From Candidatus Parcubacteria bacterium (lineage in GTDB: Bacteria; Patescibacteriota; Patescibacteriia; Patescibacteriales; UBA12075): a DNA stretch of 64,000 nucleotides. Location of the stretch: contig CAWHBO010000005.1 of assembly GCA_963827735.1 (NCBI GenBank), positions 187,669 through 251,668 of the forward strand, given 5' to 3'. The position numbers and the translations under genes were made by a program. Of this stretch, positions 34,041 to 63,290 are shown one piece after another; positions within the stretch are counted from its first letter, which is position 1; every line of letters begins with the position of its first letter. The notes beneath the pieces were generated by a model, which was not told the origin of the DNA, did no database searches, and saw only the letters and a list, made by a program, of their open reading frames with translations.

Positions 34041-34043
34041 CGA

Positions 34044-35025
34044 GTCAAGGAGGATCAGGACTACCTCCAGCGCCACCCCGACGGCCCCACCTGCCATTTC
34101 CCTCGGCCGGGCTGGAAGCTGCCGCGCCGCTACCAGGAGGAGGGCCGCGACAGCACGCGGTGGCTCGGCTTCCCGTTCCGCGACGGCGACATCGTGATCA
34201 GCACCCCGTCCAAGACCGGGACCACGTGGGCGCAGATGATCTGCGCGCTGCTGATATTCGGCGAGCCGCAGCTCCCGGCCCCGCTCGGGCGCCTGTCGCC
34301 GTGGCTGGATCACCTGGTCGCGCCACGAGATGAGGTACATGCCCTGCTGGCCGCCCAGCAGCACCGGCGGTTCATCAAGACCCACACCCCACTGGACGGC
34401 CTGCCGCTCGACCCCCGCGCCACCTACCTGGTGACCGCCCGGCACCCGCTGGACGTGGCCGTGTCGACCTACCACCACTGCGCCAACATCGACGAGGCAC
34501 GGTGGCGGCAGCTGATGGGCGAGCCCGAGCCGCCGAGGCCACCGCCGCCGCCAGAGCCGCTGCGCGACTGGCTGCTCCGCTGGATCGCCGACGACACCAA
34601 CCCGGCTCGAGGACCTCGACACGCTGCCCGGCCTCATGTACCACCTCACCGACGCCTGGGCCCGGCGCCGCGAGCCGAACATCCTGCTCGTGCACTACGA
34701 CAACCTGTGCGCCGACCTTGACGGCCAGATGCGCTGGCTGGCAGGCCAGCTCGGCATCACCATCCCCGAGCACGCCTGGCCCGCGCTCGTCCGGGCGGCC
34801 ACATTCGAGAACATGTCCCGCAACGCGGACCAGCTGGTCCCTGCCCCCGGCCTGTTCAAGAGCAACGCCGCGTTCTTCCGCCGGGGCACCTCCGGCGAGG
34901 GACGCGAGATCCTCAGCGGCGCCGAGATCGCCGACTACCACGCCCGCGTGGCGGGGATGGCGCCCCCCGACATGCTTGCCTGGCTCCACTCGCCCCGCCC
35001 CGGAGCCGTGACGGCAATGCCGTAA
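34044..35025 (+). pseudogene. PAPS-dependent sulfotransferase, 5'-truncated at the junction and split by a frameshift near 34600-34615
   Basis: 5'-PSB motif TPSKTGTTW and 3'-PB motif RHPLDVAVS in frame 0. The C-terminal part ([25 protein letters not shown]...FFRRGTSGEGREI) is in another frame. No start codon on the high-GC side. Confidence 0.65.
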
Positions 35026-35383
35026 TCACGACTGGCCCCGCGGGCCACCGATAGGGCGCGGCAGTACCGGCTCATCCCGCCGCAGGCCCGAGAGTGGCAC
35101 CAGGCGAGCAGCCGGGCGGCCCGCCTCGCCGGAGGGTGAGTGTTCAGGACGTCCAGCGGCGCTGTGAGCCCTCGCAATCAGCCAGCCGCCACATCATCGC
35201 CAACTGTGGCCTGACGGCAATAGACAACGTCGAACGCAGAGTCGGGCGCGTCCGATTCTGGGAGCGGATTGGGAGCGGAGGTCCGCCGTCAGCCGCGGTC
35301 AGATGCGGTCAGACTCAGCATGCCCATGCCTGCGACCTGCGGATACGTCGCTCAACCGCCGCATCGACAGCTCACGCGCCCAG

Positions 35384-35428
35384 TTCGGGACGAAGAGGCC
35401 GCCGGTTCAAATCCGGCCACCCCGACCC
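35384..35428 (+). other. tRNA 3'-half-like element (anticodon loop to acceptor; T-arm GCCGG-TTCAAAT-CCGGC), copy 1 of a direct repeat
   Basis: gttcgggacgaagaggccgccggttcaaatccggccaccccgacc. No matching 5' acceptor or D-arm upstream. Followed by a hairpin. Confidence 0.5.
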
Positions 35429-35517
35429 AGGTCACAGGCCCGTTTCCCCTCACGAGGAGCGGGCCTTCCCCTTGCCGAGCGCCACTGGTGCGCCAAGACG
35501 CCGCGTCCACGACTCGA

Positions 35518-35724
35518 TCACCTTGCCGTGAGCGTCGGGCGCCAGATGGGCGTACTCGTCACCGCCTGGGTGGCTGGGATGACCGCTCGCGCAGCACCAC
35601 GTACCACGCTCACCCCCGCGACCCCGGGCGCGGCGCCCGCCACAATCGCTGGCCCAGAGCCCAGAAAGGGACCAGCCATCGCCGTCAGGGCGAGGCCCAC
35701 CAAAGCGGCGGCTTTCATCGTCAT
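35518..35724 (-). CDS. Small secreted protein (68 aa, signal-peptide-like N-terminus)
   Basis: MTMKAAALVGLALTAMAGPFLGSGP... with good GC3. Local AT-richer patch upstream (RBS-like ggaaagg). Confidence 0.3.
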   Translation of the reverse strand: MTMKAAALVGLALTAMAGPFLGSGPAIVAGAAPGVAGVSVVRGAARAVIPATQAVTSTPIWRPTLTAR

Positions 35725-37375: not shown

Positions 37376-39259
37376 TCACGGTCGGGCCGGCCCGGACCGG
37401 GTGTCGGACATCGGTGTGTTGACCGTGATCTCGCCGGTGTAGGCGCGGAAGTGCAGTGCCGACTCGTGACCATGTCCGTGGTGCAGGGTGAGGTGCGCGA
37501 TCGGGCCGTCGGTGGCCAGGTCGTTGCGGTTGCGGGCATGCCAGTTGCGGTCCGCGAGCGGGAAGTTGGAGCCTGCGATCTCGATCCGGATCCGGTGGCC
37601 TGCCGGGAAGTAGTTCGCGGTGGTGATGCCGCCGATCCGGACCCGGTGGATCTCGCCGGGCACGAGCTTGGCTGGCTGCTCGAAGCCGTCGCGGTAGCGG
37701 AGCCGCAAGCAGCTGTCCGCGAGGTTGTAGGCGGTCCCGTCCGGATAGACGTCCACGAGCTTGACGAAGACATCCGCGTCCTCGACGTCGGCTGACACGT
37801 GCAGTTCCGCGCTGAGGTCGCCGACGATCGCTGTCGGCTCGGTCAGCACGGGCGTGCTGTACACGAGCACATCGGCCCGGCACTCAACCACCCGCTGATC
37901 CACGCAGATCGGGTCATGGGTGGCGAGGTCGCCGCCGAGCGACTGCACGGGGTTGTGCGGGTCGGCGATGAACTCGTCGGTCCCGGCGCCGCGGGCAGCA
38001 GGCACAAGGGCACCGTCGCCCCACAGCGTGTTCGCGGACTTGTCGCTGGCCAGGAAGAGCGTCCGCGTCTCAGTCTCGGGCAGCGGCCAGGACTCGCCGG
38101 TCAGCCAGGTGCACGCGCCCATGAGGAAGACCTGCACCTTCGGCATCGGCTGCCAGGCGTCTGCCTCATCGCCGAGGAACCGGTCGAACCACGAGATGAT
38201 GATCTCGTCGTAGGGGAAGCGGGTGTCGCCCATGGGCCGCTGGCCCAGGCGGGCCTCCGGGCCGGTCACCAGCATCCGGCAGTGCTCCGTCGGCGCCATG
38301 ATCAGGTACTGGTCGGGATGATGCTGCTGGAACTCGAATAGCTTGACCGTCTCGTGGGCGCCGACATCCATCCACCCGTTGAAGTTGATGGACGGCGTCG
38401 CGCCGGTGTGGCTGGCGTTGATCAGGTCAACCACTTTCCAGGCCGGGCTGGCCAGCCCGCCGGCCATGAACGTCTCGTAGCCCGTCAGCGGCGAGCCCAT
38501 CCGCCGCAATATGCCGCCGCTCGGCGCTTGCAGCGTCGCCTTGTCGAGGGCTGCGGTGTACTCCGGGCTGCGGAAGTCCGGCACGGTCACCGAGTACTGC
38601 CGGAAGATCCGGGCCAGCTCGTCGCCCGCGGCGCCGGCGGGCAGCTTCGGCCGCTGCCAGACCCCGAACGGGCCATACCACAGTGCCCATGCCTTGATCA
38701 TGGGAACGCCGCCGCGGAAGAAGCAGCCGTTCGATCCCTCCGCACCCGGGATGTCGCCGACGCCCGCGCCTGAGCTCATCGGCACGCAAGCGCGCAGCGC
38801 CGGATGGCCGATGGCGCCGAGCTTCAGCTGGTTCTCGGCGGTCGAGGAGCAGCCGTGCAGGCCCACCTTGCCGTTGGACCATTCCTGCGCGCTGATCCAG
38901 TCGAGGGTGTCCTGTGCGTCCGCGGTGGTGGTGGTCAGGATGCCGAAGTCGCCTTCTGACCATTCGCTTCCGCGCTCGTTCTGCATGATCAGCGCGTAGT
39001 TCTTCTTGAACTGCGCGGTGTGCATGGGCTTGAACTGATCGGGGATGGCGGCCGCGTACGGTGACCGGACCAGGAGGGTGGGATATCGGCCTTCAGCGCG
39101 CGGCCGGAAGACCACAGTCGCCAGCCGGATTCCGTCGCGCATCGGCAGCATGATGTAGTCGACCCGGTAGCGGATGGTGTCCGCTCCGAGGGCGCGGACA
39201 GCCGATTCGAGCGCTGTGGGCGGCCGGAACTCCTCGGGCCTGTCGTCGGCTGCTGTCAT
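37376..39259 (-). CDS. CocE/NonD-family hydrolase (X-Pro dipeptidyl-peptidase S15-like) with an atypical nucleophile motif
   Basis: Intact 627-aa ORF from MTAADDRPEEF. C-terminal X-Pro dipeptidyl-peptidase-like beta-sandwich region. The catalytic region reads GLHGCSSTAEN rather than the canonical GxSYxG. Confidence 0.6.
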   Translation of the reverse strand: MTAADDRPEEFRPPTALESAVRALGADTIRYRVDYIMLPMRDGIRLATVVFRPRAEGRYPTLLVRSPYAAAIPDQFKPMHTAQFKKNYALIMQNERGSEWSEGDFGILTTTTADAQDTLDWISAQEWSNGKVGLHGCSSTAENQLKLGAIGHPALRACVPMSSGAGVGDIPGAEGSNGCFFRGGVPMIKAWALWYGPFGVWQRPKLPAGAAGDELARIFRQYSVTVPDFRSPEYTAALDKATLQAPSGGILRRMGSPLTGYETFMAGGLASPAWKVVDLINASHTGATPSINFNGWMDVGAHETVKLFEFQQHHPDQYLIMAPTEHCRMLVTGPEARLGQRPMGDTRFPYDEIIISWFDRFLGDEADAWQPMPKVQVFLMGACTWLTGESWPLPETETRTLFLASDKSANTLWGDGALVPAARGAGTDEFIADPHNPVQSLGGDLATHDPICVDQRVVECRADVLVYSTPVLTEPTAIVGDLSAELHVSADVEDADVFVKLVDVYPDGTAYNLADSCLRLRYRDGFEQPAKLVPGEIHRVRIGGITTANYFPAGHRIRIEIAGSNFPLADRNWHARNRNDLATDGPIAHLTLHHGHGHESALHFRAYTGEITVNTPMSDTRSGPARP

Positions 39260-39827
39260 GCGCGGTCGACCTCCCGCGGTATTTGTTATCCGATCAATGC
39301 GCCGGGTTTGCGGTCCATTATCGATGTTGAGGCAACAGCGGCCGCAGAGCCGTCCGCCTCGACGGCTTCCGCCGCTCCGGCCCGGGAACCATCGCGCCAC
39401 GACGCCCAGCACAGAACCGGGAACTCTGGACCTTAACCAGCGGCCGTGCCAGCCCAACTGGACAAGCTCGTAATCGTTCTGCTGCGTTTCCTGGTGCCTG
39501 CGCTTTGGTGACCAGGCCGTACAGGTGGTGACCTGGCGTGACGACCAGTGCGATCTTACGGTCGAGTGGTCAGTTCTATTGCTTGGGCCGCGGTCGGCCC
39601 GGCAGCCTTCGGGGTCTCAGCCCAGCTCTGGAGAGGTCGCGTGATCGTGATGGGGGTGACCCTCCGGATCCTGCGAGACTGAGGCTGACCTGCCGATAGG
39701 ACTGCTCGGCCTGACGCGGCTGCGGGTTCGCGCCCTGCGCCGCGGACTGACCGGGGGCTGCCGATGGAATCTTCCGCGACGATGTCCGCTTCACACGGTA
39801 TCCGCGCTCGAACGCGAGTCGGCGGAA

Positions 39828-41056
39828 GTGCGGGCGCGCCGCCTGGCTGCCGCGCGCCGGCGGGCTACCGCTCTCCTGGCCGGGGTGACGGTTGTGTTCG
39901 TGGCCGTGACTGTGGCCGGTGTCCACGGGACGCTGCTTGGGTACGTGCAGGCCGGCGCCGAGGCGGCCATGGTCGGAGGCGTGGCGGACTGGTTCGCGGT
40001 GACGGCTCTGTTCCGCCGTCCTCTTGGCCTGCCGATACCGCACACTGCGCTGATCGTCGAGCGCAAGGATCAGTTCGCCGCCACTCTTGGCCAGTTCGTG
40101 CAGGAGAACTTCCTCAACGGCGATGTTCTTGCCGAGCGGATCCGCTCCGCCCGGCTCGTTGCCCGCCTGGCTGCCTGGCTCGCCGACGAGGCCAACGCCG
40201 CCGGCTTCGCCGGTCACGCCGCGGATCTGGTGGTCACGGTGGCCGAGGCTCTTGCGTGATGAGGATGTCCAGCGCGTGGTCACCGCCGAGCTGACCCGGG
40301 CGGCAGACGCCGTCGAGGTGGCGCCGCTGGCTGGGCGGGCCGTGCGGGTCCTCATGGCGGGAGGCCACCACGCCGAGTTGTTTAACGCCATCGTGTCCGG
40401 CGCCGATCGCTATCTCGCCGATCATCACACCGAGCTTCGCGAGCTGTTTGAGGCCGAGTCACCCCGCTGGGTGCCCGACGCGGTGTACCAGCGGGTCTTC
40501 GACCGCCTGTACAGCCGCCTGCGCGACAGGCTGGCGGCGATGGCGGCCGATCCGGACGACGAAGCCCGGCACCAGTTCGAGGAATGGCTCGCCGGGCTTC
40601 CCGACCGCCTCGAGACATCCCCCGAGCTGCGCGAGCGCGGGGAGCTGCATCAAGCGCGATGTCCTGGGCAGCGCCGCGCTGCGGGACTGGTCCTCGTCGC
40701 TGTGGAAGAGGCCAAGGACACGCTCCGGACCCAGGCGGCCGACCCAGGGTCTGAGCTGCGCCGCCGGCTGGCCGGTGCGCTGGCGGCGGCAGGCGGGCGC
40801 CTTGGATCAGACCGCCGCCTCCAAGACAGCGTCGAGCGTGTCGTCGAATCAGGAGCCAGGGCACTCGCCGATCAGTTCCACGACGAGCTTCGCTGGCCTG
40901 GTCACGGGAACCATCCAGCGGTGGGACGCCGCACAGACGTCGAGCCAGCTGGAGCTGCTACTAGGACGCGACCTGCAGTTCATCCGCATCAATGGCACAG
41001 TGGTGGGAGCTGGCGTGGGCCTGGCCTTGCACGCCATCGTCCTGGCCCTGGCCTAA
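39828..41056 (+). pseudogene. DUF445-family membrane protein, interrupted by two frame changes (about 40250 and about 40895)
   Basis: N-terminus GGVADWFAVTALFRRPLGLPIPHTALIVERKDQF and C-terminus GRDLQFIRINGTVVGAGVGLALHAIV are both DUF445 signatures, but they lie in three different frames. Confidence 0.6.
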
Positions 41057-41738: not shown

Positions 41739-42136
41739 CTAGACCGTGGCGGGCCAGAAAAAAGCGGTCCACGCGCAGATCAGCGCGTCGATCAGGTCTT
41801 CGCGGTGCTTGTGGGCAGCGTCGCTGTCCGGTGACGCTTCCTCAGCCAGCTGCCTGCCGACCGGGTGGGTGTGCAGGAGGAGCGGCGGGTCAGCGGCTGC
41901 CAGCCGGCTGATCCGGCTGATGAGGATGTCGCAGTTCGCGGCGCGCTCACGTTTCCATTGGGCAGCCGCGACCCGTCGTGGCTTGCGGTGCCGTCATCGC
42001 GCGAGCACGCGTCTGCCAGCGCCAGCAGCACCGGGCGCTCGTTGCCCAATGTCGGCGAGTTCGCCCACACCCAGGTCAGCACCGCGATGCTCACCGAGGC
42101 CGCCTTTCCGGGCCCCTGGCCACGCGGGTTCCGCAT
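41739..42136 (-). pseudogene. HTH_36-like (helix-turn-helix, mobile-element-type) protein, frameshifted
   Basis: MRNPRGQGPGKAASVSIAVLTWVWANSPTLGNERPVLLALADACSRDDG... with good GC3, then a frame change to ...ILISRISRLAAADPPLLLHTHPVGRQLAEE.... Confidence 0.45.
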
Positions 42137-42321
42137 CGGCGCAGGCCGCCCGAGCCGGTCCCCTCCGGCCCGCGCCAGTGCAGCGAGCTGGTGTCCGATT
42201 CTGGGAGTGAAATGGGAGCGGCCAAGTTCCGTCAGGTGCCCTCAGGTGCGGCGAGCCGCTTCCTGTCACTGCCGCTGACCTGCGCAGACGCGTCTGGCCA
42301 GTATGGTCGAACGGATGCGTG

Positions 42322-42400
42322 CCTGGTTCGGGACGAAGAGGCCGCCGGTTCAAATCCGGCCACCCCGACCAGGTCAGAGGCCACTTGTGAGCTTCACAGG
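42322..42400 (+). other. tRNA 3'-half-like element copy 2 (same 46-nt sequence as at 35384) followed by a 13-bp stem hairpin and T-run
   Basis: gttcgggacgaagaggccgccggttcaaatccggccaccccgacca, then aggccacttgtga/tcacaggtggcct and tttt. Confidence 0.5.
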
Positions 42401-42436: not shown

Positions 42437-42710
42437 CTATCCGTCGGAGTCCGTGGCCGGGAAGATGCGATCCATGGCATCGGCACCGTGCAAGAGAACG
42501 GGCCGAATCTGCTTGCGGTAAACGGTCTCGGTTGTGGCAGTGCCGCTGTGCCCGACCAGACGGGCAATGTGCTCGACCGGAACGTCGGCATCCGACATCA
42601 GCGAGACGAAGCTGTGCCGAAGTTCCCTCGGAGTCCACTCCCCGGCTCCAAGGGCGCGCCTGGCGGCGCGCCAGCACTCCGGCTCGTGCTCGCTGAAGCG
42701 CCGAAGGACG
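42437..42710 (-). pseudogene. Tyrosine recombinase (phage-type integrase) C-terminal fragment
   Basis: ...WTPRELRHSFVSLMSDADVPVEHIARLVGHSGTATTETVYRKQIRP (box II: HxLRH...LGH...Y). No integrase-like sequence in any frame further upstream. Confidence 0.7.
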
Positions 42711-43362
42711 GTCATCGATACGTGGAGGCCGAAGACGGCATGTGCCTGCCTGCCGGTTCGGGCTGAGAGCGACGGGGATACCCGAGCCGCGCGGGCGGCG
42801 GGCTGTGCCCGCGCCTCTGCGCTTTGAGGGCGCCCGGCGCGGACTGGCCCGCCTCGCGTGCTCATCCCCGCGCCTGCCCGCACGGGGCAGCTCGCCGCAA
42901 CGGAGCGGGCACATGACCGGCCAGCATTTAGCGAACAGCCGAGGGTTGACGAACAGGTGGCGGCTTCGCCGCAGAAGGCCAGCGGGGCGCTGCCCCGGAC
43001 CCCGGCCCTCCCTCAGAGATGGGATCTGGTCTACCAGGTCATCCCCTCGCCCGGCCAGGCAGAGCGCTACGCCCGAACCCCCGGACAGTGCTAGGGCTCG
43101 CTTTGCTCGGCCTCCGGCAGACCCTTGCACTCCCCGGAGAACCGGGCGCAGCCCCGCAGGGTGCCCGACCGAGGAGATGACCTTCAGCCCGCCAGGTGGT
43201 GTCTGCGTGCCAGCCTTGAGTGTGATCATCCACGGCTAGATCCCGGCGCCTATCAGAAGAACGAGCGATGAGTGGATGATGCTCGTCCGGTCGCCGAACC
43301 GCCAGCTTGCGATGTGTCGTGCATCTACTTATGATGGTCATGTGAGTAAGGTGCAGGGCCCG

Positions 43363-43704
43363 ATGCGGGAGCCGACGTACTTCGTGCTGGCGTCGCTGCT
43401 GGACGGGCCGCTGCATGGTTACGCGATCATCCAACGTGCCGGGGAATTGTCGGCTGGCCGGGTCCGGCTGGCGACTGGGACGTTGTACACGGCGCTAGAC
43501 CGCCTTTGCGCTGAGGGATATGTGGAGCTGGTGCGCGAGGAGATCGTGAACGGCCGGGTGCGGCGCTCGTACGGGCTGACGCCGCCTGGTGCGGGGGCGC
43601 TGCGGGCCGAGGCGGCGCGGATGGCGGAGGCGGCCCGGCTGGTGACGGACCGGGGCCGCGGGCTGCGGGCGGGCGGCGCTGCGCGGAAGGCGAGTCCGGC
43701 GTGA
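43363..43704 (+). CDS. PadR-family transcriptional regulator
   Basis: MREPTYFVLASLLDGPLHGYAIIQ...GTLYTALDRLCAEGYVE...GRVRRSYGLTPPG. Confidence 0.75.
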   Translation: MREPTYFVLASLLDGPLHGYAIIQRAGELSAGRVRLATGTLYTALDRLCAEGYVELVREEIVNGRVRRSYGLTPPGAGALRAEAARMAEAARLVTDRGRGLRAGGAARKASPA

Positions 43705-44262
43705 CCGCGCTGGAGCGGCGGTGCCGGTGGCTGCTGCGCGCCTATCCCGCCTGGTACCGGCGCAAGCGGGGCGAGGAGATGCTCGGCACCCTGCTGGAGG
43801 CCAGCCCGGCCTGGCCGGAAATGGCCTTCCGTCCGCGACGCGCGGGCCCTGGCTATAGGAGGTCTGCGGGTCCGAGGCTGGACCTGGTCGCTGTCGATGC
43901 TGTGGGTTGCGGCTGGGGCTGTCATCACCAGCTACATCTTTTACGCCACCACCCCCAACTACATCTCGGCTGACATTTTTGGCACCGGGTTCATCGGGTA
44001 CGACGCAGGTCCTGCGGCCGTGCAGATCGCCGCGGTCCTGGCACTTGCCGCCTGGCTGGCTCTCCCTCTCCCGGTGGGGATTGCCGGGCTCATCAGGTTT
44101 CGCGGCTGGCGGGCGGCCAACTGGCTCCGCGCGGCCGCGTGGGCAGGTGCGTGGATCGCGGGCGCCGCGCTGTTGGTGCTGGCCCGTGCCTGGGGAAATT
44201 CCCCAGGGTCAGCTGGGGAGAGCTGCCAATCTGTGCGGCGTGGCTGGTACTCGGGGCCCTGA
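43701..44262 (+). pseudogene. PadR-associated membrane protein (N-terminus MTALERRCRWLLRAYPAWYRRKRGEEMLGTLLEAS); frame change near 43805
   Basis: N-terminal motif is in frame 0. TM-rich continuation (...GRKWPSVRDARALAIGGLRVRGWTWSLSMLWVAAGAVITSYIFY...) is in frame +1. Confidence 0.55.
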
Positions 44263-44755
44263 TGACCTCAATACTGGCGGTGCCGGTGACGTCTGACCTG
44301 AGAGTGCCTAACTGAGTGATGACGACAATGCTCGTGGCCACACGCCAGCGGACGCTCATGGATATGAGCGCCCAGGTCATGCGCGGATGCTGCCACGTCA
44401 TCGAAGTGCCGAAGTGCCCTCGTAATGAACAGGTCCGCAGATAACCAGTGAAGGCGCGGCCTGGCTTCTGAGTGACCAACTGCGTGACAACGGTCGCGGC
44501 GAACCGGATACCACGGGCGGACACCAGCGGACAGTCGTAGCAGGCTGGCAGGCTCATCGTGGGTGGCGAGTGGACTCTCTGACTTGCCTGATAAGGAAGA
44601 AGTCGATGGAGGCTGAGCCGGTCAGGCGCCCTGTTCTCATTCCGAAGTTAAAAGGCTAGTTAGCACCTGGTTTACCACCCTCTCGTTGGGTAGTCCCATA
44701 CACATCCGAATGGCTCGAACAGATGCAATGACGACCTATCATGTAGGATCGTGGC

Positions 44756-45531: not shown

Positions 45532-45614
45532 GCAAGCCAGGAAGCCCTCTGTCAGGAGGCATTGCCTTCCAGCAAGCTACGTTGCCACAAGGCCCGCGTC
45601 TACGCCGCGCGCAT

Positions 45615-46135
45615 ATGAGTAATAGCCAGGCTTCCGAACTGTTTGAGGTCTGGCAATTTATACGCCAACCTGGGCTACTGCAAAGGCACAAGGGTCTAGC
45701 CTGGCCCTCCGTAGGTTGAGCTACCAGGCGCAACGAGAGCAACCCGAGGATGAGCTGCTAGACACGATGATTGCCGCCGAGGCGCTGTACCTAACAGACG
45801 TGGGTAATGAGGCAGAGCGCGGGGAACTTCGCTACCGACTTGCGCTACGCGCCGCCCTCTATAGCGGGCTAACCCGAGAGGCAGAAGTCGGATATACTGC
45901 ACGCGAAGTGCTTGGAATCATGAAATCTGCCTACGATGCGCGTAGCGCGATTGCCCATGGAGGGACACCCAAACCCGGAGACATGAAAGTGCGAGGGCAG
46001 AGAGTCTCACTTGGCGAGCTTGCTAAGGCCGCAAAGTCTGTGATTACTGCTGGCTGTCGAGCCGCTCTAGCCAAAGCAGTATCTCCAGAGGGAGGCTGGC
46101 CGCCAGACTGGGATGGCTTGGCTTTGGGTGTTTGA
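45615..46135 (+). CDS. HEPN-like domain protein (Rx4HG motif); ATG 45615 and TTG 45716 are in different frames, so a frameshift is possible
   Basis: ...ELRYRLALRAALY...YTAREVLGIMKSAYDARSAIAHGG.... Lies in the lower-GC island. Confidence 0.4.
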
Positions 46136-53624: not shown

Positions 53625-56323
53625 TGGCTGATCCTACTGAGGCAGTCGCTTTGTGATTGCTTGAAGTGCTCAGACCGCAACGAAGGAAACCGAAATAGCG
53701 GCACGGACGGTGGCCGCCGAGGATTCCGCAATTCTAGGTGCAGGCTAACGTCGAGCACCCCGGTCGATCTGCAGCTATCCCGAAGGCCGGCGTTTAGGCG
53801 CTGCGTGCTTGCTGCTCGCCGTGCGGCGCGCAGGTCGCGATTTCGCGATATCTTCGCAGTCGGCCAGATCGGCTCTCGCATCGGGTCATTGTCGGAGAGG
53901 ATCCGGGAGAGCAGCCGCGGTGTCAGCGACGCCCGGATGAGGTCGCCAGCCTGCGTTGCCATAGGCGCGAGGTAGGGCTCGATGACGTCGAATTGACGGG
54001 ACAGTCGCGTCGACTCCTGCCCCGCGCGCCTGTGCCGCTCGCCGAGCAGAATTACCACGCAAGCTGCGGTCAGCGACATCATCCATGCAACCAGGTATGC
54101 AGAGAAAACCGGCCAGACCGAGGGCTGATGCTCAGCGCCCTGGTGGTTCAGCGAGCCTATCTGGACGAGCCCAGCTATCACGATGCCGAATGCCGAGACT
54201 ACGAGCACGGTAGCTACAGAGAAGTAGACGGTTGCGGCCCGCCGGTCGCGCTGAGCATCGCGGGCATATTCCGTTGCGACGTCGGCGAGTTTCGAGGCTT
54301 GCGCGGCTCATTGATTTGGGCCAGCGCTCGAGCAGGAGGAGGTCTGCGACTGCCGCGCGCTGAGGCTGGCAAGCAGTTGATCAGCGAGTACGTCCAGAGT
54401 CCGGAATTCGGGAACCGCAACGGGTGGCCGACCGGGCTCGGAAAGTACTGCAAGGTAATCAGCGCAGTTTGCGAGTTGCTCGTCGAGCGCTGAGAGCCGC
54501 TTGCTCCACGGCACGTCGAGTCTTGGCCCGAGCCTGGTGGACAGGTCGCTGACGACGTCACAGACGACGCTCAGCTTTTCCACAAGCTCGGATTGCCCTG
54601 CGGTGCTGATGATAAAAGAAGCGGTGAGTGAGCCCTGCAGCCGAGACGCAGAGGAGGCGAGGCTGCTGGCCCGGCCGGATGCCTGCATCGCACGTGACCT
54701 CACGCCCAAAGGTTACGTGCTGGCTATTCGCGAAGAAGGCTGACATGCCGGACGGGACCGCCTCCGGCTAGCCTGGGCTGACGTCAAACCCGTGATCTTG
54801 ACTCGTTGACGTCAATCCTGCGGGCCGACCGGTTCTCCAGCACTGAGCTCTGGCCGCGGCGCCCCCCATTACTCGATGTAAGCGCGCTCGGCAAGGGCAA
54901 GCGCATCGGTAGGGGCGGTCGTTGCCCGCGGCGTCAGAATCGGCACGCGCCGCGCGCGCTGCGGCCGCGCCCGGCGGCACCTCACAGATCGACCAGTTAA
55001 GTGCCGCCCAGGTGGCCACACCGTCGCCTTGGCGCTGAGTACCGAACGAGCCGTATTTGCGCGTCGAGCTGGGAGCCGCCGATCACGGCGCGGATGTCGG
55101 CGGGCTGCGGTTGGCCGTTCCGCCTGGCGCGCCGGCTGCGATCGGCGGACTTGCCGAGCCTCTGATGGCGGCGGCCGGCGGCTGGGGGCTGGCGGGCGGG
55201 CTGCTGGCATCCCGGGGGCGTCACGCGCCCGCTTCGGGCTCCGCGCGCGGTCGCCGCTCCGTCTGGCGAGCATGCCGCGGCTGGCGGAGGATGCGCGAGT
55301 CGTAGCTCGATCTCGACCTCGCGGCCTGCCTGGCGCTGGTCGGCTGCGAACCAGCGCGCCACCTGGTAATCGAACCACCCGAGCACCGCGCCGCTGCCGG
55401 CGTCGCGGACATACCAGCGGTAGCCTGGCTCTGGTTGTCTGCGGATCATGTACGTGTTCACGGCACCGGACCCTGGCTCCGCTTAGGGAGCCTGCCCGGG
55501 CGGCGCTCCAGCGTCCCCGGCTGGCGCGGTCCAGGTCCCCGGGACCGAGGGCGTAGTCTCATTTCTAGTCTCGTTTACCTGCGTACACGGGCGTCGATCA
55601 CGCAGTCCACGGCCAGCCGCTGAGCACGGCGAACGACCCAGCTCACCGGCCGTAGACGGTCATCCTTGCTCCTGAAAAGCGGAAGGCCGGCGGTTCGATC
55701 CGCCCCGCACCCACCTGTGACCTGCCATAACGCGCTGGATGATCTTTATGCACCACCAGAGGCTAGGGACGGGGAGTGAGCAGGCAGGACGACCTGGTTG
55801 GCCGCGTCTAGATGGCGATTCTCAATCCCAGAGGCGGAAGGTCGGAGACGCGATCCGAGCCCCGACCACCAGCTCAGAGGGCAATTGATCTTCGAGAAGA
55901 TCAAGTCTGATCCCAAAATGGTCCCACCGGTGCAGCGGGAGATGTCATATGCCTGAGCTGGCAGGCACCCGTCGCGGTCACGTCGGCCTCGATGATCCGG
56001 ACGCTGAGTCCGTCCACGCAGGACATGGCGGAACCGTCGGCAGGTGGGCGGCGACCTGCGGGTTGCGGCAACACGGGGCCGAGGCCAGCACCTTCGCCCC
56101 GGCACGGCTGATCTTGGCGAAGAACCCGGTGGCGAGCGAAGGCCCGGTCCAGCAGGACCAACATGCCCGGCTGCAGCTCCTGCGCTGTTGGGTCGCGTGG
56201 CCGCTCTTCCGGGACAGCTGGAGCGCAACGTCTTCGGTCGGCGTGTCCGAGCCGCGGCCGGCAGCCTGCAGGACGGCCTGCCGGTACCGTGCGAGCAGGC
56301 CTATCGCAGTCACGGAGGTCGAG

Positions 56324-56652
56324 ATGGCGACTAGGACAACCATCACGCTCGAAGACGACATCAACGGCGGTCCCGCAGAGGAGACTCTGCAGTTCCGCCT
56401 CGGCACCGCGGAATACGAGATTGACCTGAATGCCAAGAACGCCCGCAGGTTCCGCGCCCAGATGGCCCCGTTCATCGACCACGCCCGCAAAGCAGGCCGC
56501 AGACAGCGCCGGGGGCACGTCCCGCCTCCGCGCGTGAGCACAGCGCCGACATCCGGGCCTGGGCGAAAGCGCACGACATCCAGGTCAGCGACCGCGGGCG
56601 CATCCCGGCCAGTGTCATCGAACAGTACGAAACACGCACGACCGAGCGCTGA
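56324..56652 (+). pseudogene. lsr2: Lsr2-family nucleoid-associated protein, frameshifted in the Arg-rich linker
   Basis: N-terminus MATRTTITLEDDINGGPAEETLQFRLGTAEYEIDLNAKNARRFRAQMAPFIDHARKAG. C-terminal DNA-binding domain (IRAWAKAHDIQVSDRGRIPASVIEQYETRTTER) in the +1 frame. Confidence 0.65.
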
Positions 56653-57456
56653 CCGTTACCGATACCGACTTGACCACGAGATGTAACCTCGCTCGTCGAG
56701 CGGGCGACGGCCGGTGGCTCCTCCCTGCCGATTCTCTCGAGCGAACTTTGTGCGTCCACGACGTCGTTTCTCTCGGCGTGTCGGCTCGTCGTGGACCCGT
56801 TCTCTGGAGCCACGTCCTTGACGTGAGAAGCCGCGACTGTCCTTTCGTCGCTGCGCTTTTGACGTTCGAGGCCTTCGACAGGAGCTTGGTCATGGACATG
56901 TCCACGACGCAGAGTTGCCGGAACCCCTAGCGACCTCGCCGTGCGACTTCCTGCCGAATCTGTATTTAGGCTGTCGATCCGCTGCGAAATGGTTCGAGTA
57001 CAGAACGGCACTTCTGTGGGTGTTGCCGCGATGCGGATCCCGGCCAGCTGGTTGGACGGTTTGGCATCCGGATCCCGGCCGTTCTGAGTGCCCGGCGCGA
57101 CGAGGGGCCCCGCGAGCGGCCAGTCACCCAGCTGGCCGCGGGTTCCGCGCGGCCGACGTCGCGGGCTGCGGCGTGCCTGTCAGTGCCGGGCTTGCGGGGT
57201 GCTATCCGGCTTGGGTGACGAATCCCTGGCGGTGACCGGGACGGCCGCGGCAGGCCGGCCGCGGCGGCGCAGTGGCCCGCAGAGGGGCATGATAGCGAGC
57301 CGACCTCGGCGGACCCGCCCGCGTTTGGGCCCTGAGGCCGGGCACCGGGATCGCCGTGCCCCACCCGCCGTTCCGCTCGACGGCCACGAACCCCTGGCGG
57401 TGACGGGAGCGGTCGGTGTAGTACCCGCCGGCTCTGCCGCGCTGCCGCGCGCCAAG

Positions 57457-57752
57457 CCGAGGTCCATTTTTCGGGTCAGACAGTGCGATTCGGTTTCGAG
57501 GGCCCGACTACGAGATCGACCTGAGCACCACGAACGCCCGGGCCTTCCGGAACAAGCTCGCGCCGTTCATCGACCACGCCCGCAAGGCTGCCCGCGGGCG
57601 CACGCCTGCCTGCGCGGACATCGGCTGGCCGGCAGCGCAGCGGCGAAGTCCGGGCATGGGCCAACGACCACGGCATCACGGTGAACGCCCGCGGCCGGAT
57701 CCCGGCCAGCGTCTTGGAGCAGTACCGGGCCGCCACCGGCCAAGGACACTGA
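57457..57752 (+). pseudogene. lsr2: Second Lsr2 paralog, N-terminally degenerate and frameshifted
   Basis: ...VRFGFEGPDYEIDLSTTNARAFRNKLAPFIDHARKAA..., then in another frame VRAWANDHGITVNARGRIPASVLEQYRAATGQGH. Confidence 0.55.
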
Positions 57753-57958: not shown

Positions 57959-59231
57959 TCACGGTGGGTTCGCGACTAGACCCACGGAGACGCTTGTGCC
58001 CACCGGCACCACGGTCCCGCCTCCAGGCGACTGATTGCCGACCCAGTTCCCAGAGCCGTGTGTCGTCATATGGAGTTGAGCGGCCTGGACTCGCTCCCGA
58101 GCAAGAGCGACGCTCAGGTCGATGAGGTCAGGAACGGTCGTTGTCAGCGGCGGCGGTGGCGGCGGCGCCTGGGGGTCGAGCAGTGTCCACGGTCCCCAGC
58201 CATTGCTGGCTACGGTTTGCCATTTGTGGTAGATATTCCCGTCGCCCGCCACCGCGAAGATTTCCAGGCGGCCGTCGCCATTTCTGGCGAGACCTGGCGC
58301 CGCGGCTATGAACCCGCCACCTTCGGCACCCTCATCTACCCAGTTAGACCAGCCGTTGCTGGCCGACGTTTGCCAGGCGTGATACATGTTGTGGTCGCCG
58401 CCCCTCAGGAACAGCTCCAGCCGCCCGTCCGCGCCTCGGAGCCACGACCGGATGGTCCAAGAAGCGCTCGTCGGGCGTCGAGGTCGCATCGAAGGAGTTC
58501 CAGCCTGACCAGGTCCCGACCGCGGTCTCCCACTGGTGGTAGAGCCGGTTGTCCTGGCCGCGCACGAACAGTTCGAGCCGCCCGTCAGCGCTTCTGGCAA
58601 GCGCGGGCCTGTCGACTAGAGCGACGCCGGGATTGCCGTACGCGTTCCAGCCGGAGTACGCACTGGACGGTGCTGTTTCGGCGGACATTCCACATGGAGC
58701 CGTGCGCGTCGATCGCGAAGACCTCGATCCGGCCGTCACCGCTGCAGGCGGCCGTGACAGGTCCGTAAAGCTCCGCGCCGCTCGGAGGTCCGTGGTCTTG
58801 CCAGCCCGACCAGCCGTTACTCCAGCCTCACCTGCCCGATCCGGTAGAGATGGCCGCTAGCCAGGAAGAGCTGAAGCCGACCGTCAGCGTCGGCGGCCAC
58901 CCCCGGTGCGTAGACACCGCCGCCAGGCACTGAGGGCAGTGCGGTCCACGCCGACCAGCCGTTGCTCCAGGCTGTCTGGGACGCATAGCTCAACTGCGAG
59001 ATCTCGTTCAGTACAGCCAGCGCGAGGGTCCCGTCGCCATTGGCTCCGACCGTCGCCGGCCGCCAGCTTCCCGGCAGACCCATGTCACACCAGCCGTACC
59101 AGTCGCTGCTGTTGCTCCACTGGGCCTGCCAGGCATGCCAGAGCCTGCCGGTCCTGCCGGCCGAACACAAACAGCTCCAGCCGACCGTCACCGCTGGGAG
59201 CGACGACGGGATCGCCATCGAATGGCTCCAT
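57959..59231 (-). pseudogene. Beta-propeller lectin-like (PLL/tectonin-type) repeat protein whose blades are distributed over three frames
   Basis: Repeated DGRLE(L/I)F..G.D...YH.WQT...GWS.W blades in ORFs 59085..59303, 58817..59218, 58344..58739 and 57959..58600 (all minus strand). Likely start MEPFDGDPVVAPSGDGRLELFVFG at about 59231. Confidence 0.5.
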
Positions 59232-59831
59232 GATCTGTCCTCCGCATGACAGCTGTCGCGATGCGCGAGCTTGCGAAGCTAATTGTGAGGGCACAGCTGC
59301 CATATGGCCACTCCCGCGCTAACGCCGGTCAGCCCAGACCTCGGCGGCGACTGCACGATCAGGCGGAGCTCGGCCGCCTGCTTCGGTCGTGAGCACATTG
59401 CCCTCGACCGTGGAGGAGAACCCGCACTGCGAAGACAGGCAGAGCTGGTCGAGCGGGACGAACCTGGCCGCCTCGTCGATACGCCGCTTCAGCGCGTCCG
59501 GGTCCTCGAGCTTGCCGGTCTTGGTCGTGACTACGGCGAGGGGAGACCGGCTTGGGAGTGGCCGGGCTGACGGGGCAGGAATGACGGCCAGCAGGATCGG
59601 TCAGCGTCAAGCATCGACTGCGCGGCACGACCAACGCAAGCATCGGCGGCCGCCCGGATCGCCGATTCGGCGCTCTTCTAGGCTGTGGTCAGCTTCGGCT
59701 GGTCTGGGCCGCCCCGAATCCTCTGTTCGGCGTCGCCCGGGCGTGCTGCGCCGGCGTCGCCTGCGTGAGGGCCTGCTGGTCTGAGATGGAGCGGAGCCGG
59801 ATCGCAACGACCGGAATCTTGCCGGGGTCTT

Positions 59832-60200
59832 GTGTCACAAGATATCGTGTTGGGCGTGGCGGATGCCGAGCTGACGGAGCTCCGCAGGGGCGTGCTGGGG
59901 CCGTGCGTGCTGGCGCTGCTGGAGCAGCGGCCGCGGTTCGGGCTGGAACTGGTCCGTGACCTCGCGGGCGCCGGCGGCCTGCTGACCAGTGACGGCACGG
60001 TGTACCCGCTGCTGAACCGGCTCCGGGACGCGGGCCTGGTGACCAGCGAATGGCAGGTGGTCGAGGGCGAGCGGCCGCGCCGGTACTACTCGATCACTCA
60101 GGCGGGGACGGCGAGCCTGGCGGCATTCCGCGGCGAGTGGGCGCGGTTCGCCGCCACGGTCAGCCAGGTACTGCGCGAGGGTGCGGCGGAGCCGGCTGGG
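59832..60200 (+). CDS. PadR-family transcriptional regulator (no in-frame stop until 60536, so the C-terminal boundary is uncertain)
   Basis: LRRGVLGPCVLALLEQRPRFGLELVRDLAGAGGLLTSDGTVYPLLNRLRDAGLVTSEWQVVEGERPRRYYSITQAG. Confidence 0.7.
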
Positions 60201-60389
60201 CGCCGCCAAGGGACGGCCGCGATGAACGACGCAGAGCTTGCGCATCGGCTGGTGGCCGGGTACCGTACGCGGTTCGGCGCGGCCGCGTGGATGCCCGCTG
60301 CGGGACATTCTCATTTGGCTGCACCGCGCCGCGCGGACGGTGACCCGGGTGGCAGCGGGTGCCTCGGGCGGATGGTACGGGAGGCGACC

Positions 60390-61289
60390 GTGATCGATGT
60401 GCTGGAGCATCCGCTGGTCGCGGGTTACCTGCGCGACCTCGACGCCGCGCTGGCGGGCCTCGGCGGCGGCGGCAGCGGAACTGTCCGAGCAGCTCCGGGC
60501 GCACCTGCTGGAAGCGCTGCCGCCCGATGCCGATGAGGACACGGTGATGGCGGTGCTCGCCGCGCTGGGTCCGGCCCGGCTGGTCGCCGAGGCGGCGGCC
60601 GGACCGGCTTCCGGGCCGGGCCGCGGCCGGGCCCGGCCGGACCCGCCGCTGCGCCGGATGGCGGCCTGGGCCAGGCGGCAGCCGGCCCGCACCTGGCTGG
60701 CCGTCGCAGCGGTCACCATCGCGATCGGGCTACCCGCGGGCACGCTGATCTTCTGGCAGGCCCAGCCGAGCCTGCAATGGGTGGGGTCATTCTCCTGGTG
60801 GAGCCAGGCCGATGGCGCCCGCGCGGTGACGACCGAGGCGGCCGGGGCGACCCAGTACACGGTGCCGCTGCGGCCCGGCAAGATCCAGGGCTTCGCCATC
60901 TTCGTGTACAACCCCTCGGACCTGACCGAGTTCATCACCGGCAGCGCCGACCACATCAGCCCGGGCGCGCCGGTCCCGGCCGAGATCGGCGTGTCGACGA
61001 CCGGCACCGTCCGGCAGTCGGGGAACCGCACGCGGTCAGCTACCGGACCGGCGGCCCCATCCCGCCGCACTCCTACCGGTGGGTCCGTGTGCTATGGCGG
61101 TCCGCTCACTGCTACCTGGAGGCCGCCGGGGGCTGGCAGGGGACCAGCGACCTGCAGCTGCGCGTCCGCGTCGGCTGGATCACCAGGACCGAGGACATCC
61201 CGCTGGCCGCTGAGGTCGCCGTCTCACCGAGCGCGGCCACCGTCCAAGCGGACAGGGCATACTGCCGGAACCGGCCACCGGGAGGCTGA
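60390..61289 (+). pseudogene. PadR-associated membrane protein with two frame changes (about 60470 and about 61020)
   Basis: VIDVLEHPLVAGYLRDLDAALAGL | AELSEQLRAHLLEALPPDADEDTVMAVLAALGP...TM...IGVSTTGTVRQSG | ...HAVSYRTGGPIPPHSYRWVRVLWRSAHCYLEAAGGWQGTSDLQLRVRVGW..., spread across three frames. Confidence 0.5.
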
Positions 61290-61867
61290 CCAGCAGCCGC
61301 CCGGGAGTACCCGCCGGCGCAACCGCGCCCAGACCACCAGCATTCCGGCCGCCGTTCCTCTGGGTCTTAGAACACCGGAACGCCAACTCAGCGGCGGCGC
61401 ATCGGCGCCGATCCTATCGTCGGCAAAGCCGCCGTCGGCCGCAACCACCAAGTCGACCGGCAATCACAGATCGTCACGCACCTGCGCGGAGCACTCGCGG
61501 ATCGCCGATTCGGCGCTATTAGCCCTGGTCAGCTTCGCGCAGGCCGGACCGCGCCGAATGGCTATTCCGTATGGCTGTGGCCAACGAGGCCGCGCCTGTC
61601 GGCCGGTGCCGAACGAGCAGTGCGGGTGCTTCCGTCAGCGCGTGGCAGTATCGCTGGTACTCGGGAGGAACTCGACCTCGCCGATGATGTCGCCGTAAGT
61701 TCGACTGGTTCTCGGCCCGGATTGATTCTCGGTGATGTCCTGGCCGCCAATCTGACGAATTTGGCAGCGGTCTAGGGAGGCTGACGCGGCAAGGTAGCGG
61801 CCGTCGCGCCGGGCTGGCGCTTGCATATCTGGACAACTGATTGTCTATCTAGATAGAGTTCCGTCTC

Positions 61868-62215
61868 ATGGCGGCGCGTTCCAGGTTCTCGGCCCAGACG
61901 CTGTCGGTGCTTGCGGTGCTGTTCGCGGAACCGGCGGCGTGGCGGCACGGATACGGGATCGCAAAGGACACCGGACTGAAGTCGGGCAGCCTGTACCCGA
62001 TCTTGATCAGGCTGGCCGAGCGCGGGCTGGTGGAGGCGTGCTGGGAGGCGGAGCAGCCAGCTGGCCGGCCGCGCCGCCACCTGTACCGGCTGACTGCCGG
62101 GGGCCGTGCAGAGGCGGCAGCGGCGCTGGCGGATCGGCAGGCCTCCCTGGCCGGCGGCATCCGGCGTCGCCAGGGCCACCGGGCGGCACCGCAGGGGGCG
62201 TCGTGGGCGGGCTGA
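61868..62215 (+). CDS. PadR-family transcriptional regulator
   Basis: AQTLSVLAVLFAEPAAWRHGYGIAKDTGLKSGSLYPILIRLAERGLVEACWE...GRPRRHLYRLTAGGR. Confidence 0.75.
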   Translation: MAARSRFSAQTLSVLAVLFAEPAAWRHGYGIAKDTGLKSGSLYPILIRLAERGLVEACWEAEQPAGRPRRHLYRLTAGGRAEAAAALADRQASLAGGIRRRQGHRAAPQGASWAG

Positions 62216-63290
62216 CGCGCGCGCTGTCTGCGCTGTTGCGGCACTCGGCCCGGCTGCTGCCGGCTGAGCGCCGCGCATGGGCGGAGGCAGCCTGGGCTGA
62301 AGCGGGCGAGGTGCCCGCCGGCCGGCGGCGGCTGGAATGGCTGGCGGGCGGGGTCTGGATGGCCGCGTCGCAGGCCCGCGTGGTGCGCCGGGCCGGATGG
62401 TGGCTGGTGTTCGGGGCGGTGGCGGCCGGAGTGGTCCGGTTGGGGTGGCCTGGCACTGCTGCCAGCCCGGCCACGGCGATCAACCGGGTCGACGCGGTCG
62501 CGGTCGTGGTGATCTTGTCCGGGCTGCCCTGGGCCGTCCGCCGGATGTTCGGTCCGGCTGGCGGGAGCAGGCTGTCCCGTGTGCTGCGGGCGGCCGGCTA
62601 TGCGGGGATATTGGCTCTGACCGTGGTTAAGGCGAGCGCGGAACGCTTCGGTTATCCGCACGATGCGAACCCCGGCGAGGCGGGTCTGCTGTGGCCCGGC
62701 GAGATCGTTTTCCTGGTGGTGATGGCCGGCTATGCGGTCGGGATCCTTGCTGTCACGGCGCGGCGGGCGCCGACCGCGCCGGCCGCCCTGGCCATCGGCT
62801 CCGCCGCGGGCGCGGCGGCGGGCATGGCGCTGTATGCGCGGGGAAACCTGCACCTCAGCGGCCCGGGGCTTGCGGCGGTGTTTCCGATGCCGTCACGGTG
62901 CTCACGTGGGCTGTGATGCTGGGTACGCCGATCGCGGCCGGGCTGGCCGCGGGGCGGCGGACAGGCCGGGCCCGGCAGGGCGCGGCGACCGGAGCTTGCG
63001 CGGGTGCCGCCGCCGCGCTGGTCGTCTCGGTGCTGGGGACCGGCGCCGCCGCGTTGCTGCCGCACGAGGCGAGGTTGCTGTACTGGGCGTATCCGGTCCG
63101 CCATCTCGCCCACGGCGCCCTGTACCGGTACGAGGTCAACGTGAGCCAGGGCGCGGCGGCCTACATTTTCGTCCTGCTGTTCTTCCCGCTGCTCGGCGCA
63201 GGTCTAGCCAACTTGGGAGCGCTGATCGCCGTGGGCCAGCCCAGCCAGCGGCCAGGCGGCGGCAATGGCGGCGGCCCCCCGCCGCCCCCG
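62205..63290 (+). pseudogene. PadR-associated polytopic membrane protein with a frame change near 62875
   Basis: LTRALSALLRHSARLLPAERRAWAEAAWAEAGEVPAGRRRLEWLAGGVWMAASQ...TM helices... | SDAVTVLTWAVMLGTPIAAGLAAG...YIFVLLFFPLLGAGLANLGALIAVGQ. Confidence 0.5.

Follow-up and report, generated by a model that had tools for sequence, protein, structure and literature searches.

Frame breaks in the actinobacterial half of a chimeric Patescibacteria contig are very likely consensus errors

The window, that is, the whole stretch of 64,000 nt analysed here, is chimeric: DNA of two phyla meets at ~34044, where the GC content rises from 0.38 to 0.70 within 50 nt inside an ORF. DNA on the low-GC side is Patescibacteria, Falkowbacteria-like, and that on the high-GC side is Streptosporangiaceae-like actinobacterial (Actinomycetota). 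The junction, placed at 34035-34055 (unstranded) by the GC step and the different phyla on its two sides, interrupts both flanking genes: a TPR-type ORF starting at 33712 runs across it into foreign sequence, and the sulfotransferase gene (34044-35022, forward strand) lacks a start codon within the high-GC sequence. The read-through ORF (33712-34197) is P0121, recorded from one NCBI/ENA deposited contig of 256,523 nt. In the low-GC half (1-34043), 25 intact ORFs, including one of 1,976 aa, take up 85% of the sequence. The initial annotation missed both the chimera and this clean half, and the contrast between the halves is the key to the explanation.

In the high-GC half, the Pfam Sulfotransfer_1 domain of the sulfotransferase is split over two frames, with profile positions 1-117 at nt 34182-34499 in one and 142-232 at 34639-34905 in another, and the GC3 signal switches frame at 34601, in agreement with the change initially placed at ~34605. 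A CocE/NonD-type hydrolase gene (37376-39259, reverse strand) is followed by a DUF445 gene (39764-41053, forward strand), for which alignments to relatives revealed four 1-nt indels private to the window (+1 at 40254, +1 at 40646, -1 at 40709 and +1 at 40889) and, in the long N-terminal form, a further +1 at 39798. The changes first noticed at ~40250 and ~40895 are two of these; the 40646/40709 pair had been overlooked. The RlmJ-like methyltransferase gene (49588-50441, forward strand) carries a 1-nt deletion, CCC to CC, whose exact site is 50136 rather than ~50170; residues 1-183 and 184-285 of P0246 map there to abutting segments in two frames. Two Lsr2 genes on the forward strand are also broken as had been reported: the dimerization and DNA-binding domains of copy 1 (56324-56649) lie in different frames, with the change, expected at ~56520, between 56497 and 56530, and copy 2 (57440-57749) has at least two changes, at ~57500 and 57590-57627. 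The six DGRLE[LVI]F repeats of a beta-propeller 'lectin' with a PASTA tail (57962-59320, reverse strand) lie in frames 1, 2, 0, 1, 2 and 2; the repeat spacings of 304, 148, 151 and 157 nt all leave a remainder of 1 on division by 3 and therefore require at least four frame changes, where at least three had been suggested.

Three PadR genes, each with a partner gene, lie on the forward strand. PadR copy 1 (43276-43704) has an intact domain and is 76% identical to the orthologue in relative L021 in a single frame; its partner (43701-44291) has a +1 at 43808, matching the earlier estimate of ~43805, and changes frame again between 44193 and 44217. PadR copy 2 (59832-60533) retains its domain but has lost its last 8-9 codons and stop to a net +1 at 60174-60199, so that the initial description of the 2-kb hydrolase and all three PadR genes as intact holds for the hydrolase, compared with 15 orthologues, and fails for this copy. 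The PadR2 partner (60390-61286) has a -2 at 60461 and a -1 at 61018, and its RBS-start spacer a +1 at 60387; more than ten independent relatives (73-94% identity) are of one accord in differing from the window at these three sites, and the private changes of the window in this gene comprise 9 substitutions and 2 indel events. PadR copy 3 and its partner occupy 61868-63679, with the PadR domain at 61943-62119. Alignments thus confirm two of the three further partner changes that had been listed (~60470 and ~61020), whereas the third (~62875) corresponds to a putative change at ~62890 which, like another at 63326, is suggested by GC3. Composition-only candidates, proposed from GC3 periodicity and a plausible reading, number five: these two; ~41947 (initially ~42000) in an HTH/DUF429-like gene (41742-42241, reverse strand), where a GC3 model, a weak DUF429 match and visual reading point to a change; and ~48350 (initially ~48340) and ~48780 in a hypothetical gene and a membrane-protein gene (47620-49100, forward strand), for which no family matches were found and the GC3 phase profile and frame reading were used.

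Overall, at least 19 frame changes are present in 10 genes between 34044 and 64000, as established by Pfam domains split over frames, by aligning nucleotide sequences with intact orthologues and by spacings of the lectin repeats that are not divisible by 3. The intact ORFs of the low-GC half, 29.1 kb in all, revealed none. The pervasive frame disruption that had been described is therefore borne out; it is confirmed that the frame changes exceed chance, and the indel load differs more than 50-fold between the two contig halves. Homopolymers of at least 5 nt are ten times more numerous in the low-GC half (378 vs 37), yet its ORFs are intact, which makes it an internal negative control. Runs of 2-3 nt are touched by only five of the 12 mapped indels, and homopolymers of at least 4 nt contain none of them, so the statement that many fall at C/G runs is only weakly true. 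That the indels are not of the classical long-homopolymer type counts against reading them as errors.

The region bears real scars of mobile elements. A 53-nt direct repeat resembling a tRNA 3' end is found in two forward-strand copies: copy A (35375-35427), an att-like scar in which neither ARAGORN nor Rfam calls a tRNA, and copy B (42318-42370), 94% identical to it and directly beside the C-terminal remnant of a tyrosine recombinase (42440-42760, reverse strand; RHSFVS ... LVGHSG ... Y motifs). Previously offered as an example of error, the discrepancy of ccc versus cccc in the tRNA-like copies lies at the edge of a 53-nt att-like repeat and is thus poor evidence of error. An aberrant tRNA-like element (50744-50830, forward strand; Gly-CCC, 87 nt by ARAGORN and under the Rfam threshold) has its 3' part copied at 55669-55719 and 55834-55874. 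Integrative elements of actinobacteria that target tRNA genes (AICE or genomic islands) leave direct repeats matching the tRNA 3' end with a tyrosine-recombinase gene beside one of them, an arrangement that the window shares; unlike them, the window has no intact tRNA, its integrase is a C-terminal remnant and no transfer or replication genes were found in the region. The scars are a background to the frame changes and not their cause.

Many neighbouring frameshifted genes beside mobile-element remnants are typical of pseudogene-rich genomes, e.g. Mycobacterium leprae, and of decaying genomic islands. The repeat pair with its integrase remnant, the degenerate tRNA-like element with two fragment copies, a gene order not conserved with relatives and a hydrolase devoid of frame-disrupting gaps would all suit an eroding integrated-element cluster in an actinobacterial genome, in which frameshift mutations inactivated most cargo genes while the hydrolase and PadR regulators stayed under selection. 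The initial annotation had weighed such an eroding mobile region against frequent small indels from uncorrected long reads, and we consider real pseudogenisation unlikely. The same integrase remnant lies beside PadR1 in L021, so its truncation is old and shared, predating the indels and unrelated to them, and a variable context around these genes is normal in all relatives. No disruption is common to any relative: the indels, of 1-2 nt, are seen only in the window, and up to a dozen independent relatives (73-96% identity) are intact at every site tested.

In DUF445, the alignment of the window to L017/L018 (93.6% identity over 1,409 nt) contains seven 1-nt gaps; within the CDS the window shows four 1-nt gaps against each of three relatives, while these relatives show none among themselves, down to 91% identity. 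The window has 27 private substitutions and gaps in at least 4 columns, versus 99 private substitutions and no gaps in the three relatives, giving P ~ (27/126)^4 = 0.002 if indels tracked substitutions. The private indel-to-substitution ratio is at least 1:5, whereas neutral decay gives far more substitutions, and genes with up to 4-5 independent indels per 1.2 kb are still 91-93% identical to intact orthologues; the repaired DUF445 protein, aligned along 100% of its length, reaches this identity with hundreds of intact proteins of 429 aa. In its repaired frame, mismatches per codon position are 14/15/43, compared with 18/14/57 in the intact hydrolase and 19/17/48 between relatives. This concentration at third codon positions in broken genes, unchanged from that in the hydrolase, indicates that selection was normal across the breaks, and no in-frame stop codons were seen in five genes rebuilt residue by residue. 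Non-coding DNA is affected as well, with a +1 at 39709 and a -1 at 39763 upstream of DUF445 in addition to the 60387 insertion, and the two copies of an otherwise perfect 113-nt repeat differ solely by two 1-nt indels. Unlike decay of the Mycobacterium leprae type, then, the lesions are unshared, the substitutions still purifying and the indels far above the load that substitutions predict. Some disruptions could nevertheless be real, given the true decay seen in the integrase remnant, the att-like repeats and the tRNA-like element.

The conserved hydrolase served as a positive control. In the window, an in-frame 3-nt difference at the extreme C-terminus is broken up into gaps of 1 and 2 nt by some pairwise alignments. 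All other gaps not divisible by 3 come from pairs in which L013 or L015 is one member; 1-nt gaps among relatives are confined to these two, and short-read MAGs have none. Both are Nanopore-only MAGs assembled with Flye and Medaka (PMC12313526), and they carry the same type of lesion as the window. In the 1.9 kb of the hydrolase in the window no frame-disrupting indel was found against the 15 orthologues, where the local rate predicts ~5-6. Allowing for the choice of the longest among ~90 intervals, ~0.3 clean stretches of this length are expected; the absence is not significant, and uneven depth could also explain it.

The clean hydrolase and uneven error density, hundreds of orthologues at 88-93% identity in soil metagenomes, and a mismatch within 3 nt of 6 of 11 indels may also suggest that reads from several strains living together, with 93-96% identity, were merged into a single path, the consensus caller producing indels at polymorphic sites; low depth would then not be required. 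Indels are, however, not significantly associated with nearby mismatches (null 39%, p = 0.23), and such a mixed-strain consensus, which we regard as improbable, would be a sub-variant of the artefact explanation and not a biological alternative.

Chimeric contigs in metagenome assemblies are misassemblies that join unrelated genomes, and the window resembles them in its abrupt composition step inside ORFs, the different phyla on its two sides and a fused artificial ORF in the database. The junction, with an ORF reading across it and both flanking genes interrupted, does exist in the deposited contig, as it would if a Patescibacteria genome had taken up at least 30 kb of actinobacterial DNA that is now decaying unexpressed. 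That a streamlined genome of ~38% GC should contain a 30-kb block at 70% GC is very unlikely a priori, and GC-to-AT changes are not in excess among the substitutions private to the window in DUF445 (10 S>W vs 9 W>S). Substitutions keep the codon-position pattern of selection, decay would not yield indels without neutral substitutions to match, and the more than 50-fold difference in indel load points to different data support for the halves. We judge a real inter-phylum insertion to be extremely unlikely.

Taken together, the private lesions, intact orthologues, selective codon pattern and the fact that the only relatives with this kind of lesion are Nanopore-only MAGs favour small indels from uncorrected long reads, and the two-alternative interpretation given initially is partly supported. 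We consider it very likely that the contig is a chimeric long-read assembly in which read support for the actinobacterial part is very low, and that the frame breaks are consensus errors, not mutations. A well-supported Falkowbacteria-like Patescibacteria genome would have been falsely joined at ~34044, through a chimeric read or a wrong assembly-graph path, to DNA of a soil Streptosporangiaceae-like actinobacterium covered by very few long reads, whose consensus would keep near-raw-read errors. Such errors, ~1 indel of 1-2 nt per 300-350 nt or, by extrapolation, ~90 in 30 kb, would occur both within genes and between them; each would move the reading frame, so that normal genes come to resemble multiply broken pseudogenes. 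The long-read platform, the low depth on the actinobacterial part and the origin of the join are what we infer.

Indels are known to inflate pseudogene counts in Nanopore MAGs, most severely at low coverage (PMC8103633), and database pseudogenes are often artefacts of assembly that depend on platform, assembler and coverage (PMC11017572). As in those spurious pseudogenes, small indels in the window split normal genes into short ORFs while short-read orthologues are intact; in contrast to them, the errors are not concentrated in long homopolymers and are confined to one contig half, and their density (~1 per 330 nt) is well above the 2-3 per 1.9 kb at the two MFD MAG loci. The disruption of the high-GC half is almost certainly a data-quality problem and not gene decay, and under the best reading the biological interest is low.

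Frame disruption proved to be pervasive in the high-GC half of the window (34044-64000), as the initial annotation had claimed for at least 12 genes there; we verified at least 19 frame changes in 10 genes, so that its count of changes was somewhat low. A GC3-periodicity model, used in a relaxed version as the first version was too strict, placed same-strand frame switches at 34601, 40247, 40743, 41947, 43690, 56536, 60476, 61027, 62195, 62890 and 63326, a good match to the sites listed earlier, most of which are confirmed by homology. A crude GC3 filter applied to ORFs was uninformative. Further putative changes at about 41947, 48350, 48780, 62890 and 63326 are suggested by composition and a plausible reading.

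Pfam searches, run on stop-free pieces of the translated frames, found the Sulfotransfer_1 profile of the sulfotransferase split over two frames (profile positions 1-117 and 142-232) and the DUF445 domain distributed across three, while in both Lsr2 copies the dimerization and DNA-binding domains lie in different frames, with a further shift in copy 2. The full-length RlmJ-like homologue P0246 maps to the window in two adjacent frames, residues 1-183 to 49588-50136 and residues 184-285 to 50136-50441, and therefore one C has been lost from a CCC run. The orthologue of the PadR1 partner in relative L021 aligns in three segments in frames 1, 2 and 1, and the six DGRLE[LVI]F propeller repeats of the lectin fall in frames 1, 2, 0, 1, 2 and 2, with spacings of 304, 148, 151 and 157 nt, none of which is divisible by three. 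PadR2, which had been taken to be intact, has a net +1 shift at 60174-60199 that removes its last 8-9 codons and the stop. No in-frame stops were found in the five reconstructed genes.

All 12 indels that could be mapped at the nucleotide level are of 1-2 nt, the small size expected of a long-read artefact; five of them extend or shorten a run of 2-3 nt, and none of the 12 sites has a homopolymer of 4 nt or longer. Mismatches are not significantly enriched beside the indels (p = 0.23). Once its frames are joined, the DUF445 protein matches hundreds of intact 429-aa proteins from soil metagenomes at 91-93 % identity along its full length. When the locus was aligned with that of L017, its closest relative, at 93.6 % identity over 1,409 nt, seven gaps were seen, all of exactly 1 nt (five insertions, two deletions); a pair of them is upstream of the gene, where indels were mapped at 39709 and 39763. 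At the PadR2 partner more than 10 independent relatives (73-94 % identity) agree with one another and disagree with the window at three sites: 60387 (+1), within the spacer that separates the ribosome-binding site from the start codon, 60461 (-2) and 61018 (-1). The +1 at 43808 in the PadR1 partner was confirmed by L021, and unpolarised intergenic indels are also seen at 61303-61374. The PadR2 module (59759-61414) itself occurs in two natural architectures: relative L022 is collinear with the window, and in L020 and L021 PadR and the partner gene are about 780 nt further apart. An element of about 113 nt is also present in two copies, 1.32 kb apart on either side of the RlmJ-like gene (49237-49347 and 50557-50669), which differ by two 1-nt indels, both central, and otherwise are 100 % identical; Rfam returned no match to the element, and its fold was not significant.

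The initial annotation had left two explanations standing, erosion of a pseudogene-rich region and uncorrected long reads, and had proposed a comparison with orthologous loci. By this comparison the lesions are private to this one assembly: the orthologues elsewhere are intact, and every relative differs from the window at the same sites. In DUF445, four 1-nt gaps separate the window from each relative, whereas among the relatives there are none down to 91 % identity, nor were gaps of a length other than a multiple of three seen among relatives in DUF445 or in the close partner pairs (L019-L022, L024-L026). When changes were polarised with several relatives, the window carried 27 private substitutions and at least four gap columns in DUF445, compared with 99 private substitutions and no gaps for three relatives jointly, a split with a chance of about 0.002 if indels tracked substitutions. 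Likewise, the window branch of the PadR2 partner has 9 private substitutions against two frame-breaking events. Four to five independent frameshifts arising by drift should be accompanied by many evenly spread substitutions, which DUF445 does not have. Programmed ribosomal frameshifting was rejected, as the site is not conserved and the orthologues are in a single frame at every site.

Selection across the breaks was then read from codon positions. In the repaired frame, the broken DUF445 gene has 14, 15 and 43 mismatches to a relative at codon positions 1, 2 and 3, compared with 18, 14 and 57 for the intact hydrolase and 19, 17 and 48 between relatives; the window-private DUF445 substitutions are distributed 8, 5 and 14. 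Purifying selection is thus seen across the breaks, and on this sequence pattern selection on the broken genes looks normal. Decay of the region predicts disruptions common to relatives and relaxed selection; none of the mapped indels was found in any relative and the third-position bias is kept.

Assemblies of known platform provide a control. In pairwise alignments of the CocE/NonD-type hydrolase, gaps of a length other than a multiple of three occur only where L013 or L015 takes part, apart from one in-frame 3-nt difference at the extreme C-terminus of the window hydrolase, which some alignments (L012, L007) split into 1 + 2 nt. L013 (MFD06714.bin.2.92) and L015 (MFD05841.bin.3.68) are both public, Nanopore-only metagenome-assembled genomes (MAGs) and carry about three and two private 1-nt gaps, respectively, in the hydrolase (10001-11880), while all the short-read relatives are clean of such gaps in this gene. 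The same class of lesion is therefore present in long-read-only relatives and absent from short-read ones, and L013 and L015 probably carry the same kind of spurious frameshift. Sequence composition was also considered. The low-GC half has 378 homopolymers of 5 nt or longer, against 37 in the high-GC half, and its 25 intact ORFs, one of them of 1,976 aa, cover 85 % of it and hold 104 homopolymers of at least 6 nt. Since the homopolymer-rich half is the intact one, composition cannot account for the contrast between the halves, whereas differing read support can.

The 1.9-kb hydrolase (37376..39259, minus strand) is free of frame-disrupting indels, as had been noted, although the local rate, about 1 per 330 nt, predicts 5-6 in a gene of this length. 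It was picked as the longest intact ORF, and with about 90 indels in 30 kb some 0.3 intervals of its size are expected by chance, which is not significant; with this choice allowed for, intactness of the hydrolase was rejected as a sign of selection. Uneven depth would also be able to explain the clean hydrolase. Synteny gave no reference for indels, since the hydrolase relatives (L001-L015) and the DUF445 relatives (L017, L018, L034-L036) have nothing but the gene itself in common with the window, and tblastx returned only high-GC noise. Gene order differs from that of the relatives, and equally among the relatives. The idea that the high-GC half is an artificial mosaic was dropped, as the context of DUF445 differs in every relative, and as local architecture is common to the window, L022 and L021. 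Two of the DUF445 relatives, L034 and L035, have identical DUF445 genes, and the neighbouring 618-aa protein kinase of L034 (4369-6225) appears as two fragments of 182 and 193 aa in L035 (4369-6194); either a deletion is real or the two assemblies, both short-read, differ.

The contig is very probably chimeric, joining DNA of two phyla, which the initial annotation missed, and the actinobacterial part alone is affected by the frame changes. The first 34043 nt have a GC content of about 0.38 and the remainder, from 34044, one of about 0.70, the switch being complete within 50 nt, and the junction (34035-34055) lies in mid-ORF, with coding sequence interrupted on either side. On the low-GC side, an ORF that opens at 33712 and encodes a signal peptide and TPR-type repeats continues directly into high-GC DNA, and the sulfotransferase on the other side lacks an in-frame start codon from the junction to its P-loop. 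The glycyl-tRNA synthetase of the low-GC half is 79-81 % identical to proteins of Candidatus Falkowbacteria and other Patescibacteria, and this half also codes for FtsA, RelA/SpoT and giant surface proteins with N-terminal T4SS-pilin domains, whereas the nearest matches of the high-GC half are MAGs of soil Streptosporangiaceae and other Actinomycetes. The low-GC half is thus of Patescibacteria and the high-GC half Streptosporangiaceae-like, and the compositional and taxonomic break interrupts genes. The junction-crossing ORF (161 aa) is on record as P0121, from one 256,523-nt contig in NCBI and ENA to which the low-GC proteins of the window also trace. As P0121 was recorded from the deposited contig, the join belongs to the deposited assembly, and its creation by the cutting of the window was rejected.

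Among the surface proteins of the Patescibacteria half, those of 603 aa (6395-8206) and 1,976 aa (8380-14310) have a T4SS-pilin/TrbC N-terminus and, after it, Big_5 or TIG and fn3 domains, which looks like a pilin-anchored adhesin architecture. The same half encodes a Peptidase_S74 'chaperone of endosialidase' protein (17521-18705), a domain typical of phage tail fibres, and a 548-aa protein with six thrombospondin type-3 repeats (20129-21775).

The join could in principle be a real insertion, in which a Falkowbacteria-like Patescibacteria cell captured at least 30 kb from a soil actinobacterium, perhaps its host or a neighbour, and the foreign DNA was degraded by an unusual indel-prone process faster than substitutions gather. 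The window-private substitutions, however, show no added bias towards GC-to-AT changes, codon positions keep their pattern and indels alone are in excess, and we consider such an insertion extremely improbable.

The mobile-element scars in the region, by contrast with the indels, are real biology. A 53-nt direct repeat resembling a tRNA 3' end (35375-35427 and 42318-42370, 94 % identical) brackets the hydrolase and DUF445, and neither copy belongs to a complete tRNA. The contrast of 'ccc' with 'cccc' in the tRNA-like copies, previously offered as an example of error, sits at the border of this att-like repeat. Directly adjoining the second copy is a remnant of a tyrosine recombinase, which covers profile positions 114-167 of 172 with space for about 270 aa at most; it is found in the same place in L021, and is therefore old, predating and unrelated to the window-specific indels. 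An 87-nt tRNA-like element at 50744-50830 was called Gly-CCC by ARAGORN and scored 25.6 bits in Rfam against a threshold of 29 bits; it has a 20-nt insertion in the D-region and a broken anticodon stem, and its 3' part recurs about 4.9 kb downstream (55669-55719 and 55834-55874), like att scars. At the gathering score Rfam returned no tRNA and nothing at all over the 64 kb, and at a permissive threshold only the sub-threshold tRNA and a chance miRNA match. For a tRNA-targeted integrative element, only 3'-end repeats and the recombinase remnant were found, with no intact tRNA at one end and no functional tyrosine or serine recombinase. A lower-GC island (0.55-0.62) is also present at 44300-47000 within the 0.70-GC half, with no Pfam, NCBIfam or PHROG match on the ORFs tried, and searches of the unannotated middle genes with NCBIfam and PHROGs gave nothing and no sign of prophage.

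Because the lesions are private, selection is normal, Nanopore-only MAGs behave alike and the low-GC half is clean, the frame changes are very probably small indels left by poorly corrected long reads, where platform and read depth are what we infer. Of the two earlier explanations, poorly corrected long reads is thus the best, and decay is an unlikely cause. It has been reported that pseudogenes are more frequent in Nanopore MAGs through indel errors, more so in low-coverage contigs (PMC8103633), and that many pseudogenes of public genomes are artefacts of assembly, linked to the platform, the assembler and the coverage (PMC11017572). Comparing private indels with private substitutions offers a way of telling consensus indels from real pseudogenes without reads, together with the codon-position pattern across breaks, the phase of internal repeats and assemblies of known platform as controls.

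The frame disruptions themselves contain no new biology; the practical gain is in database quality, as a public contig that is contaminated and laden with errors is flagged. This 256.5-kb contig, assigned to a Patescibacteria-type genome, holds at least 30 kb of actinobacterial DNA, and the artificial fused protein P0121 derived from it is already in protein databases. Used uncritically, it would make a CPR bacterium seem to encode Lsr2, PadR modules, a sulfotransferase and a beta-propeller lectin, and could be misread as gene transfer between phyla or as a decaying island rich in pseudogenes.
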